Assembly (NCBI GenBank): GCA_012295275.1
Contig: CM022670.1
Coordinates: 39,928,001 to 39,992,000, forward strand
Direction: 5' to 3'
Source of the DNA: Chrysomallon squamiferum
Lineage: Eukaryota; Animalia; Mollusca
DNA length: 64,000 nt
Both the position numbers and the translations under genes were made by a program. Below, in pieces: positions 41,704-64,000 of this stretch (its first letter is position 1; every line of letters starts with the position of its first letter). The notes under the pieces are model-generated. The model was not told where the DNA came from. It was given only the letters and a program-made list of their open reading frames with translations, and ran no database searches.

Positions 41704-43462
41704 ATGAATTCACTGTTCGCTTGTATTACAGTAAGATTGTTGTTGTTTTTAAAACTTTTTTGCATTATTTAGTACGTTAGAATAAAACACAAATATGTAA
41801 CACACACACACGCACGCACGCACGCACGCATATATATATATATATATTTTTTTTTTATCGTAATTCAGTTAGTTTTCTTATCGTGATTATTAACATGGTT
41901 TTTATTACATTATTAACTGTACAGATCAAACACACATTTACCTGCATGAACATAAATATGTATGTACATGAGTGTAAAGTAATTAAAAATTAAAAAAAGA
42001 AAATATGCACATAATGTGTGTGTATATATGTCATCTATCTATATAAATTTTATAAACAGTAGCATAAATATATATTCTTTTATAAACACACTTTTGACGG
42101 TTTGATATAGTGCTGTGTATGTTGTATGTAGCTTATAGTGTAATATCATTGTGTAAATACACATACGTGCATACAAATACACAATACGTAGATAAAGTAA
42201 CCCTTATTTGCATTTTCAAAATCATCACCATTATAATGACCACTCTAAAAAGTACCATTCAGAATTTGATTCTTCTGTTATTTCTTAGTGCTTGAATTAA
42301 ATGAAGTAAATTTCTGAAGTATGTAGCATAATTTATTTACCGGGAATAGAAAAGAAAAGAAAAAAACAACAACAAGAAAATAATAATAATAATAATAATA
42401 ATAATAATAATAATAATAATAATAATAAAAATAATAATAAAGTGATTTTTCCTTCTGCATGAAGACTCGAAGCCTATAGGCCTCACTGCAGATAAGGAAA
42501 CTTGTAAAGCTGATATAGATGTTCTCTTTTTTTTCAGGTCAGTTTGCTCTGTGGTTCTGTGTGTGCCCAGTCTGGTAATGATCAGTGTATCAGTAGAAGA
42601 ATACTGCATTAAATTAGGACGAGGATAAATACGCACTGATTTAAACATAACTTAATAAATAAATATAAAAAAATAACTGAATTACAAACACGTTAATATA
42701 CGTAGACTTTTGCAGTTTATATTAAACGTGTAATTTACCACTTTTAAAGTAGCACGTGTTTAAGTACGAATGAATTCTTTATACTTACAAATTATTATTT
42801 TTTCAGTCTTTAACAGTGTGTGACAATAAAATAATGCAATTTTTTGTTGTTGTATTTCATTATTAAGACTGGTTTTAACTAATAATAATAAAAATAATAA
42901 CAATAAAAACAACAACAACAACAACAACAACAACAACAACAACAATAATAATAAATAAATAAATAAATAAATAAATAAATAAATAAATAAAAAACGTAAA
43001 ATATTTTCTGTCCACACTTTCATTACAGCTATTTTGAACTTTTCATCACATACTGAGGTTTCTGTGAAGACATTAACCTCTTACATTGCAGGTAACAGTT
43101 CTGACTGTGGCGTTAACGACGATTGTAAAAGTGTCCACGTGCCTCACAGCATCATCAACAATGACGTATTTTGCTGCCTCAATGGCCAACTGCCTTCAGT
43201 CGTCGCCATCAACTCTGTTGTCTCTTGCACGTGCGACCCTTCCAAAACGATGACGCCAGAAGAACTTCAGACGATGTTGTCGTCCATTGGCCGCAACGTG
43301 CAACACACCCTGTCCTCCGTGACTCATAATTTGCAACACACCCTGTCCTCCGTGACTCATAATTTGCAACACACCCTCTCGTCTGTGGGACACACGCTAG
43401 AGGGCGTTTTGAACGGCGTGAAAACCACCTTGTCTGCTGACTTGAGCAATCTCTTCGGTTGA
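41704..43462 (+). CDS. Small secreted Cys-rich protein A1 (144 aa) with 11-residue amphipathic repeats; family not recognised
   Basis: Exons 41704-41730 (MNSLFACIT|gtaag), 42538-42574 (VSLLCGSVCAQS), 43092-43462 join in frame: signal peptide, C-x5-C-x15-CC-x16-CxC, then about 3 copies of QHTLSSVTHNL; AATAAA directly after the stop. Confidence 0.85.
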
Positions 43463-44043
43463 AATAAATGCGTCTCAGATTCAAAATCGTTTTTATTTGT
43501 TTTCATTTGTTATTGTTATTTATTTATTTGTTTTCTTTTCATGTGTTGCTATGTTTTTGTTTTTATTTCTTTTGATTTGATTTTGATTTTATTTTAATTA
43601 TTATTATTATTATTATTATTATTATTATTATTATTATTATTATTATTATTATATATATATATCTTATCTATTTTCATTTTCACTTGCGTATACTTCTCGT
43701 TTACCTGCTTTAATTTCAACGTATTATTTTTTATTTCTGTTTCTACCTATTCTGTGGTTGGTTGTAAAAGTTTAAATTATATACGACTAAACTGGTTCCA
43801 TTGTTTTAGCTCCATGTTTGCATGGACGGAAATAGGTAATTCTGGTTTAATCGAACGTTATCTCTGAATGGTTTTTAATAAAGCTAATAGCTATTCATGC
43901 CCAGAGCTGGGATGTTTTAAACGTGCCAAGCACTGAACCATACCACATCGCTTCATCCACTGAAAAAACAGATACATCATCTAGCAGGCAGCTGATAAAA
44001 ACCACGACAGTCTCGATAAACGATCAGTCTGGACTTCGATAAC

Positions 44044-61126: not shown

Positions 61127-63542
61127 ATGGAAGCGTGGCCAGTGATTCTAACAGTAAGTTTATTTTGTTATTAAACTGGATTATTTTATATATTAATTTG
61201 AATTTATAGCAATTATTTACTAAGTGTTTTCATTCTTTATTTTTGGTTTATCTTCAGAGTTGAAGACACTGTAATTTAATTTTTTTATATTTTGTTTCAT
61301 GATCAGTTTGATACTAATAGGTGTTATAAAATAACGGATTCTTTGTGACGCTTGTTTTTCGGGCGAATGTAGGAATCTCGTATCGCTTAAGAAATTAACA
61401 AAAAAATAAATACATTAAAATGTTATAGAACGATAAGCAGATTTCTGTCTACATCATACACATGCCTCACAGCATCGTCAGCAACGAGGTGCCGTGCTGT
61501 CTGAACGACCACGTGCCCTCAGTCGTGGCCACCAACTCTGTTTACACTTCAATGTCGTCGCGACCTCTTCAAGACTGGTCGTTCTTCTACAGCCCTTGAG
61601 CGCATGGCCACATAGCGAGCAGAAAGCAGCAGCTTTGTAACATCCTGCACCTGACGACGATTTCCCACCTTCTGTCCCCACAAGTCAAGACAGTTAACTT
61701 GATTCTCTCACATTAAAAAGCACCACGGATTTGTTCGTTCTTTCTTACGATCTCCTCCCTGTGTTTGAGGTTTTTGTTTTCTGGATAAATTATGAATTGT
61801 TGAAAACACCCCGAAGCACTGCTGTCAGAGGTTTGGCGAAAGCGGTCATTCTAGTCGTACATTTTATCAGTATATTATAAGTGCACACATAAGTACACAC
61901 ATACATACACACATACACAAACACACTCATACAGACACAAACACATTCTTACACACATGCACATACATACGTTCACACACATATATACATACATGCATAC
62001 ACAAACAGTCATACATACACACATACGTACACAGAAACACACACCAGCTTCCTGACACTTAATTTGATTTCAGTTGACAACATTCGGTGTAACGTTAACT
62101 TTCTTATATAAAAGGAGTGCTACCTTTTGTTGTTAACATGGATTCTAGTTATGAAGTAAAAAAAAGATTTAAAAAGAAAAAAAAAAAAAAAACCTCTTTG
62201 AAATAGAATTATTTTTTTTCATCCGTACACATTATCACCCAAACTCCCTTTTCAATACACAACTTTCTGATGTAATAAAATGCAAAAATATCGATTGTAA
62301 TTCCAGCTGATGTACATTTCCATTCATTTATAAACACATTGTCTTGCTACAGCAATATGTTACATTCATATAGCTCAATTCTGCTTTATGCATTAATAAT
62401 GTAAAACAACAGAAGGATTGTAGCAGCATTTTATTTAATGACTCACTCGACACATTTGTAATGTAAGATGAGAGATACGCGAAATCTGTTCATTCAGTTT
62501 CAATCAAATGTAAACTACTCGTTCTTTGAGCCTAGTTTTTAAAATAAACTAGTAAAATAATCTTTGTTGTGTTTATTTTCTGTTTCAGATTTTTTGTATC
62601 AGCTTTGTTGTGGCTCAACAAAACGCGAGCACACCAGGTAAGTTTGTGAATGTTCCAGCAAAAAACTCATTTAATAACTGTTACTATTGTTTGTTTGTTT
62701 GAAGTTTAGTTATTTAATACTTTGTTTGTTTGTTTGTTTGTTTGTTTATTTATTTATTTATTTATTTATTTATTTATTTATTTATTTATTTATTTATTTA
62801 TTTTATTTTTTTATTTTTGTATTTATTTTATTTAATAAAATTTAATTTAATTTAAATTATTTATTTACATTACTTACTTAAATACTTATTTATTTTTATT
62901 ATTAAACATTCAATTGTTGTTGTTGTTATAATCTTTTTTTGAAAAAGCATTGACCAAATACAGTTATTCAAACAGTCAACTGTTGATCCTTTACAAAAAT
63001 AATGATCGTAACGATTCTGAACTGGGATTAATGTGATTTAACGAGATAAAAAAAAAACGATCAAGTTTAATTTCTCTGCAGAGTGCGTATTAAATAGTTC
63101 TTCGTATTATTAACACGACTTGGTAAATGATTTCAGATCTACGCGAAGGTGCATGCAGATACAATTCATTTTCTGGTATCTTATGGTAACTTACGGAATT
63201 GCTTTCTCACGTCATTATTATCTAAATCTCTAACAACCATATTTGCTTTTTCCAGAAACTTCTGCTGAACAGTTTGAATGCAGCTTCAACGAAACGTGCA
63301 AAAGCGTGAATGGCAGCCTCACCGTCATCAACGGCAAAGTAATTTGTTGTTTGAATGGTCGGGTTCCGCTGGTAAACGTAATTAATGGCACCATGTCCTG
63401 CACGTGCGATCCGAAAATGACGATGACGGCAAAAGAAGCCTCGATTTTCCTTAGAATAATGATCGAGACTGAGGCGCGACGCATTGAAAACGAGATACAA
63501 GACTCGATTAGAAATATGGAACGTTTGATGAATTCTTTTTAA
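61127..63542 (+). CDS. Small secreted Cys-rich protein B3 (120 aa), nearly identical to B2
   Basis: Exons 61127-61153, 62589-62637, 63256-63542. Confidence 0.87.
61441..61599 (+). pseudogene. A-like relic exon (C3) inside B3 intron 1
   Basis: Near-identical to C1/C2; a TGA>TGG change extends the frame by 7 codons. Confidence 0.7.
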
Positions 63543-64000
63543 AAAAAAACCAGAACACAAAACAAAAATAATAAAGCTTAGCAGTTACAAATGTTTATTA
63601 ATTATTTTTCTGTAGTAGTAGTAGTAGTAATGTCACGATGACTAGTCTGAGTGGTATTACTACCTAAAATTAGGGTAGCAGACTATAACAGCGTCACGTG
63701 ACACGGTGTTAATTATCTGAGACAGCTTAAACTACTAAATGACTATTCTGTATCCACTAGAGAACAACAACACAGACACGAATTCAGTATGGACAATTGG
63801 TATATATATATGTATGTATGTATGTATTTAGTTTACACAAATCAACCCGAAAGAGTCATATATAGTTATATAGTTAAATCTTACGGTTCGACGATATGTT
63901 ATGAAAGCAAACAGTGTTGACAAATAATACAAAACCAATTCAGCCCAGTTGATTACTTGATCTTTCTAGATACTCTTTTTAATTATTAAAATACATTAAC

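Follow-up and report, generated by a model that had tools for sequence, protein, structure and literature searches.

A recent tandem array of a divergent cGAS-like gene and a secreted-type gene in Chrysomallon squamiferum, with a broken paralogue carried along

A 64,000-nucleotide stretch of the Chrysomallon squamiferum genome (GenBank assembly GCA_012295275.1, contig CM022670.1, positions 39,928,001 to 39,992,000 of the forward strand; hereafter the window) contains a real, recent tandem array of a divergent gene resembling cGAS-like receptors (cGLRs) and a secreted-type gene, B, with a broken third gene, A, carried along. The initial annotation had proposed an innate-immunity or symbiont-control module at this locus and had named passive co-duplication as the alternative; it is the alternative that fits best, and the array is probably the product of passive co-amplification of independently evolving genes. 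The weight of the locus rests on a hypervariable, non-basic pair of cGLRs and on the orphan family formed by A and B, rather than on the proposed module. The components of the array, in window coordinates, are as follows.

41704..43462, plus strand: gene A1, the sole whole A in the window; exons 41704-41730, 42538-42574 and 43092-43462; 144 residues; GT-AG splice sites and an open frame
44044..46343, plus strand: gene B1, a paralogue of A; exons 44044-44070, 45478-45526 and 46057-46343; 120 residues; isoelectric point (pI) 8.6
47106..49209, minus strand: cGLR1, a putative Mab-21/cGAS-like nucleotidyltransferase; exons 49209-48946, 48747-48522, 47986-47810 and 47626-47106; 395 residues; pI 6.2
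50254..50332, no strand: repeat junction 1, where DNA upstream of cGLR1 is joined to intron 1 of A
50333..51224, plus strand: A2, exons 2 and 3 only; frame open, no homologue of exon 1
51774..54223, plus strand: gene B2; exons 51774-51800, 53271-53319 and 53937-54223; 120 residues, 18 of them different from B1; pI 4.9
54606..55358, minus strand: older cGLR fragment, the end of exon 3 plus exon 4; 13% diverged from both cGLRs, with a 1-base and a 6-base deletion
55569..57751, minus strand: cGLR2; exons 57751-57488, 57290-57065, 56525-56349 and 56089-55569; 395 residues, 44 of them different from cGLR1; pI 7.2
59255..59333, no strand: repeat junction 2
59334..60530, plus strand: A3, without exon 1; reading frame of exon 3 shifted within an expanded 33-bp repeat
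61127..63542, plus strand: gene B3; exons 61127-61153, 62589-62637 and 63256-63542; 120 codons, one residue different from B2

Self-comparison of the window reveals repeat blocks that are 88-93% identical across 2.5-3.8 kb. The spacing of the units is 7.7-9.4 kb (7795 and 9001 bp between successive copies of A exon 2, 7730 and 9353 bp between those of B exon 1), which bears out the repeat of about 8-9 kb described at the outset, and the stop codons of B1 and cGLR1, put at about 760 bp apart, are separated by 763 bp. The layout is that originally described, with A and B on the plus strand and a convergent cGAS-like gene on the minus strand. Three full sets of A, B and cGLR had also been described; the orientation and the three B genes stand, but the window holds only two whole cGLR genes, one older broken cGLR fragment and one whole A. 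A third cGLR would have its stop near 64305, beyond the window end. Within unit 2, the distance from B2 is 383 bp to the broken fragment and 1346 bp to cGLR2. The fragment is frameshifted, differs at 62 of 478 sites, and carries the 3' end of cGLR2 where its own 5' part would have been. After masking, non-coding DNA differs at 36 of 1728 sites between units 1 and 2, at 56 of 1997 between units 1 and 3, and at 28 of 1780 between units 2 and 3.

The repeat boundary lies inside intron 1 of A. Exons 2-3 of A occur three times in the window and exon 1 once, in A1; A2 and A3 resemble A1 only from about 75 bp 5' of exon 2, where they are joined to DNA upstream of cGLR. Because of the position of this boundary, neither A2 nor A3 has the exon with the start codon and signal peptide. 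No matching start exon was found before either copy, only weak candidates, none of them common to both; a new coding first exon opening at an ATG near 50186 is not supported, as it meets an early stop in unit 3 and leaves a 40-bp intron in unit 2. The 33-bp repeat, which encodes the 11-residue tail repeats, varies in copy number (43270-43400, 51080-51150 and 60140-60500); in A3 it is both expanded and frameshifted, possibly through a consensus error within the repeat.

Contigs from sequencing runs were compared over 41500-44800, X1 and X2 being DNA runs of two studies and X8 and X9 RNA runs. The loose end of an X2 DNA contig matches the letters upstream of junction 2, in unit 3, so that the junction is present in the DNA of a second study. 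At 42525 the junction-type (headless) letter has a depth of 351.6/431.5 in X1 and 15.7/21.1 in X2. Contig depth in the repeat exceeds that of the flank by about 4-6x in both studies (213-279 against 27-59 in X1, which is possibly the source sample, and 16-26 against 3-4 in X2); by the tool's own caveat such depth gives no copy number, and the contrast fits a real array of several copies. One X8 RNA contig (depth 3) opens at the acceptor of A exon 3 with 12 unmatched letters, the pattern expected of a spliced read. At 43169 it shows the A1 letter, in contrast to the main DNA contig with its A2/A3 letter, and it weakly supports A1 as the transcribed type of A. An X9 RNA contig lies inside B intron 1, and DNA or unspliced RNA must therefore be present in those RNA libraries; the word shares of 0.12 and 0.09 in X8 and X9 exceed what A alone explains and count as no evidence.

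The cGAS-like identity initially assigned to the minus-strand genes is upheld. Searched singly against PDB, exons 2, 3 and 4 match 8GJW, "cGAS-like receptor 1" (E 0.0035, 0.25 and 4.5e-5), exon 4 also matches cGAS chains, and the catalytic residues of both copies align to those of 8GJW. In cGLR1 these comprise a G81-S82 loop, E94, D96 and D184, and the catalytic residues are kept in both proteins. The final curation rule for cGLRs, a G[S/G] loop with an [E/D]h[E/D] X50-90 [E/D] triad (PMC9980059), finds a match at 81-185 in both copies; the strict motif of the same study, h[QT]GS X8-20 [DE]h[DE]h X50-90 h[DE]h, does not, as N-S precede G-S. The G-S loop, the E-h-D and the third Asp 87 residues on are shared with the cGLRs of Li et al. 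2023 (PMC9980059) and Slavik et al. 2021 (PMC8410604), whereas about 30 extra N-terminal residues, hypervariable between copies, set the present proteins apart. Pfam scores for single exons (Mab-21 23 bits, Mab-21_C 14.9 bits) stay under the cut-off of 24.1, and exon 1 gave no relevant match. For exons 2 and 4, word-based homologue searches were empty, and none of the 24 and 155 longer-protein candidates, respectively, proved to be a relative at E<=0.001 (weak evidence according to the tool). All Atlas matches of exon 4 were below 0.9, and its predicted structure, modelled alone, was too poor for a fold search, with a predicted local distance difference test score (pLDDT) of 38.8. Judged from these motifs and alignments, cGLR1 and cGLR2 are likely cGLR-like Mab-21 enzymes that work as cGLRs do.

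Copy-number expansion of cGLRs is known in invertebrates, with 0-4 genes in the six gastropod species of one survey, and those that sense DNA or RNA have a pI >8.5 and a basic ligand groove, acidic ones being proposed to sense other ligands (PMC9980059). The present pair departs from the nucleic-acid sensors, with pI values of 6.2 and 7.2 (by a method that differs from that of PMC9980059) and 4-5 basic against 5 acidic residues at positions 34-70. Between cGLR1 and cGLR2 there are 56.7 replacement and 6.3 silent differences, giving a ratio of replacement to silent change (pN/pS) of 2.4 (p=0.017). The excess is concentrated in exon 1, where 33 of 209 replacement sites differ, compared with 26 of 691 sites in introns (p=2e-8); at 24/722, exons 2-4 equal the intron rate (p=0.67). 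Most striking is one short segment.

49102..49179, minus strand: hypervariable patch spanning cGLR codons 11-36; cGLR1 and cGLR2 are unlike at 29 of 78 bases and 16 of 26 residues

Sixteen of the 44 differing residues fall in this patch, a concentration reached in none of 20000 shuffles, and none of its 10 unchanged residues has a silent change. A frameshift or inversion was ruled out as its source, since 32 of 57 positions agree at offset 0 and at most 21 in shifted or reversed registers. Conversion from an unseen distant paralogue is possible, but should have brought silent changes. By its distance to the G-S loop and the numbering of cGAS, the patch would lie just before the expected spine helix. 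The spine contributes to the ligand groove (PMC8410604), and the patch together with the near-neutral charge suggests selection on ligand recognition, possibly of a ligand other than nucleic acid. The 3' flanks of the two genes (46967-47105 and 55392-55530) are identical, with 0 of 113 sites different, while their introns differ by 3.8%; recent conversion and constraint are alternative explanations.

The amino-acid-biased divergence first claimed for both gene types thus holds for cGLR exon 1 and also, as detailed below, for B, but not for cGLR exons 2-4 or for A, whose exon 3 differs at 2 of 328 sites between A1 and A2 (p=0.07 against non-coding DNA). B1 and B2 are separated by 19 replacement and 2 silent differences (p=0.27 against their own silent sites), and B2 and B3 by a single residue.

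A and B had been described as two unrecognised secreted proteins, Cys-rich and amphipathic. Their secreted-type character and the absence of a known family stand; they are, however, not two kinds of protein but paralogues, 41% identical in exon 3, alike in exon sizes and phases and sharing six Cys in the pattern C-x5-C-x15-CC-x16-C-x-C. Their N-termini are hydrophobic (best 9-residue Kyte-Doolittle mean 2.4-2.9) and signal peptides, hence secretion, are predicted. Their tails are amphipathic, with a moment peak at 97-98 degrees matched by 0-1 of 2000 shuffles (98 degrees and 0 of 2000 for A1, whose tail consists of 11-residue repeats). A first exon common to A and B, spliced in the manner of protocadherins, was ruled out, since every unit contains a separate 27-bp exon 1 for B. 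A relic of the same family lies within B itself.

44358..44483, plus strand: degenerate A-like exon fragment, fragment C, in B intron 1, without four of the six Cys

Fragment C recurs at about 52090-52215 and 61440-61570, in B intron 1 of the other units; it is a decayed third A/B paralogue, and the family was accordingly duplicating locally before the present repeat arose.

A profile search of 1.84 billion cluster representatives, in which close paralogues are concealed only if >50% identical to a representative, returned four matches at E<=0.001, one of them real: the uncharacterised Gigantopelta aegis protein XP_041356736.1 (LOC121373954; E 8.7e-27), the other three (E 1.7e-4 to 8.6e-4) being repetitive unrelated proteins that were dropped. 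It has the same six Cys, a signal-peptide-like start and an amphipathic tail, and is 66% identical to A exon 3 and 34% to B exon 3; no separate B-type protein was found. In Pfam, B has no match and A none above cut-off; a PDB profile search with the family reached E 0.8 at best and gave no family; an Atlas search with A as the query gave no usable match (best template-modelling score 0.40); a word-based homologue search with B exon 3 was empty; and a structure model of the family (pLDDT 41.6) was unusable for a fold search. No profile or structure match was obtained to known secreted Cys-rich families with defensin, WAP, prokineticin/astakine, knottin or Vago patterns. Apolipoproteins, perilipins and synucleins are built on 11-mer amphipathic helices. 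The tail periodicity of A and B is like theirs, and Pfam Apolipoprotein appears at E 0.026 with 14.7 bits against a cut-off of 90 bits; unlike in those proteins, the tail is fused to an unrelated six-Cys domain; the resemblance is one of pattern, not of membership. Searches of the open-licence literature returned no description of the family and no mention of the G. aegis accession. As far as sequence can tell, A and B form an undescribed, snail-restricted family of predicted secreted proteins.

The joint amplification would be explained by unequal crossing-over, with functionally independent neighbours duplicated as one block, each extra unit receiving a whole B, a whole cGAS-like gene and a headless A. 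The cGAS-like protein would, as its family suggests, act in the cytosol as a sensor and produce a nucleotide signal, with an N-terminal patch putatively selected for recognition of a ligand that may not be nucleic acid. A and B would act outside the cell, each pairing a small disulfide-bonded domain with an 11/3 amphipathic tail that may bind lipid or membrane surfaces, and B would diversify under its own selection. The sensor coupled to two effectors, as first proposed, is not supported: the repeat breaks A; the older fragment shows that cGLR was once duplicated without A or B; and G. aegis, to which the single A homologue found belongs, appears in the survey with 0 cGLR and 0 STING (PMC9980059, supplement 5). 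STING is likewise absent from several abalones and patchy in gastropods (PMC11103948). A metagenome scan confirmed 0 of 297 stretches.

The comparison with bacterial immunity fares no better. In the cyclic-oligonucleotide-based anti-phage signalling system (CBASS), a CD-NTase and a Cap effector share one operon, and it is in the cytosol that the product of the neighbouring gene binds the cyclic nucleotide. The likeness consists in a CD-NTase-like gene adjoining other genes; unlike in CBASS, the present genes contain introns, are convergent and form no operon, and the neighbours are predicted to be secreted and have no nucleotide-sensing domain. PADLOC gave a CBASS profile match in 0 of 7 pieces, and neither Pfam nor PADLOC revealed a cyclic-nucleotide receptor domain. 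The predicted signal peptides make it unlikely that A or B serves as a CBASS-like receptor for a cytosolic cyclic dinucleotide, and the analogy fails on compartment; predicted secretion and the missing CBASS match would therefore make them induced outputs at most. The statement that no cGLR locus with such partners had been described agrees with the open-licence literature, in which we found no account of this locus or of a cGLR with secreted neighbours and no co-occurrence of "peltospirid" and "cGAS"; PMC10732462 has no passage on linkage.

Several observations weigh against passive co-amplification with a dead A. A G. aegis orthologue may have escaped the survey, since the present cGLR does not match the strict motif of that study. 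Exon 3 of A2 retains an open frame and is nearly identical to that of A1, and the X8 exon-3 RNA contig described above carries the A2 letter at 43225. A further X8 RNA contig, 722 bases long and matched at 42474-42533, has junction-type letters and 629 unmatched bases upstream, which raises the possibility of transcription from headless A; its source could be a transcript running through the junction, the cGLR 5' end, or DNA carry-over. A cGLR transcript may even start inside the A remnant, which would give the internal cGLR copies a chimeric promoter. Between B1 and B2, 19 of 283 replacement sites differ against 36 of 1728 non-coding sites (p=9e-5), and accelerated amino-acid change is seen in precisely the two genes kept whole per unit, B and cGLR. 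From unit 1 to unit 2, moreover, their net charges shift in opposite directions (B from +2.5 to -3.5, cGLR from -4.4 to +0.8), over two pairs only; with just two unit types, these opposite shifts and the fast divergence of both genes are anecdotal.

Such observations leave room for a narrower link between B and cGLR, which we nevertheless consider unlikely. B and cGLR would then form a co-selected immune or symbiont-control unit, in which cGLR senses a changing ligand, its signalling induces the adjoining B, and B, once secreted, targets microbial membranes or serves as a cytokine, A being a broken passenger. Both genes are whole in every complete unit, their 3' ends in unit 1 are close, the B tail is strongly amphipathic, and the nearest relative, G. 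aegis, hosts endosymbionts and has expanded immune families (PMC7895826). The genes nevertheless stand tail to tail with no common promoter, cGLR has been duplicated alone, the A-bearing relative is listed without cGLR or STING, B matches no immune family in Pfam, PDB profile or homologue searches, and B2 and B3 are nearly identical, so that B diversification amounts to one event between two types. If B were induced by and selected with cGLR, the locus would represent an operon-like organisation of cGLR immunity in an animal and would indicate an output for gastropods, in many of which no STING is found. It is intriguing, although quite improbable, that in this lineage of symbiont-hosting vent snails, whose nearest sequenced relative lists no STING, a non-basic cGLR senses a fast-changing protein ligand through its N-terminal patch and has been co-amplified and co-selected with B as a lineage-specific secreted, membrane-binding effector, with matched variants in each unit; this would be the first animal cGLR locus to carry its own output gene.

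A comparably slim chance attaches to amplification driven by the dosage or diversification of B, as a mucus, shell or surface coat protein, with cGLR as a passenger whose patch is under relaxed or separate selection. All three B copies are whole, 1 of 355 exon sites separates B2 from B3, compared with 28 of 1780 sites in non-coding DNA (p=0.07), a broken cGLR is present in the array, and replacement change at the intron rate in cGLR exons 2-4 also fits relaxed constraint; relaxed constraint, however, would not give 29 of 78 differences in the patch with no silent change in 10 unchanged codons, and the catalytic residues are kept in both cGLRs. That the repeat is partly an assembly artefact, from uncollapsed haplotypes or noisy long-read consensus, is very unlikely. 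In its favour, the units differ by just 1.6-2.8% in non-coding DNA, exon 3 of A3 has a garbled appearance and X1 is possibly the source sample; against it, raised depth is seen in two studies, the junction is present in X2, and the units have distinct insertions and an old fragment.

Under passive co-amplification, the probable course of events, the cGLR pair holds its value even without a module. What non-basic cGLRs sense is a question raised in PMC9980059, and two proteins that are 89% identical and differ in a divergent 26-residue N-terminal patch are a natural pair with which to ask it. The 5' region of these genes also has a candidate upstream exon.

50038..50100, minus strand: likely non-coding first exon of cGLR1, from splice signals only; donor near 50038, acceptor near 49252

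DNA upstream of cGLR2 (57998-59330) contains two copies of this likely exon, with minus-strand donors near 58320 and 59040.

The remainder of the window is eukaryotic in character, with 25-38% GC, abundant microsatellites and spliced genes. THOC1 exons lie on the plus strand at 4384-12186, two of them matching efThoc1 in Pfam and the final one a Death domain. A minus-strand exon at 1188-1430, in head-to-head orientation to THOC1, resembles the start of a nucleotide-sugar or PAPS transporter (SLC35B3-like), with no Pfam match. Plus-strand exons at about 22980-35830 resemble a choline transporter-like (SLC44/CTL) gene; the two exons scanned gave no fitting Pfam match. Intronic minisatellite arrays occur at 25781-26832, 28137-28695, 33562-33981 and 34609-35217, the one at 28137 having a unit of about 62 bp with 93-95% identity.

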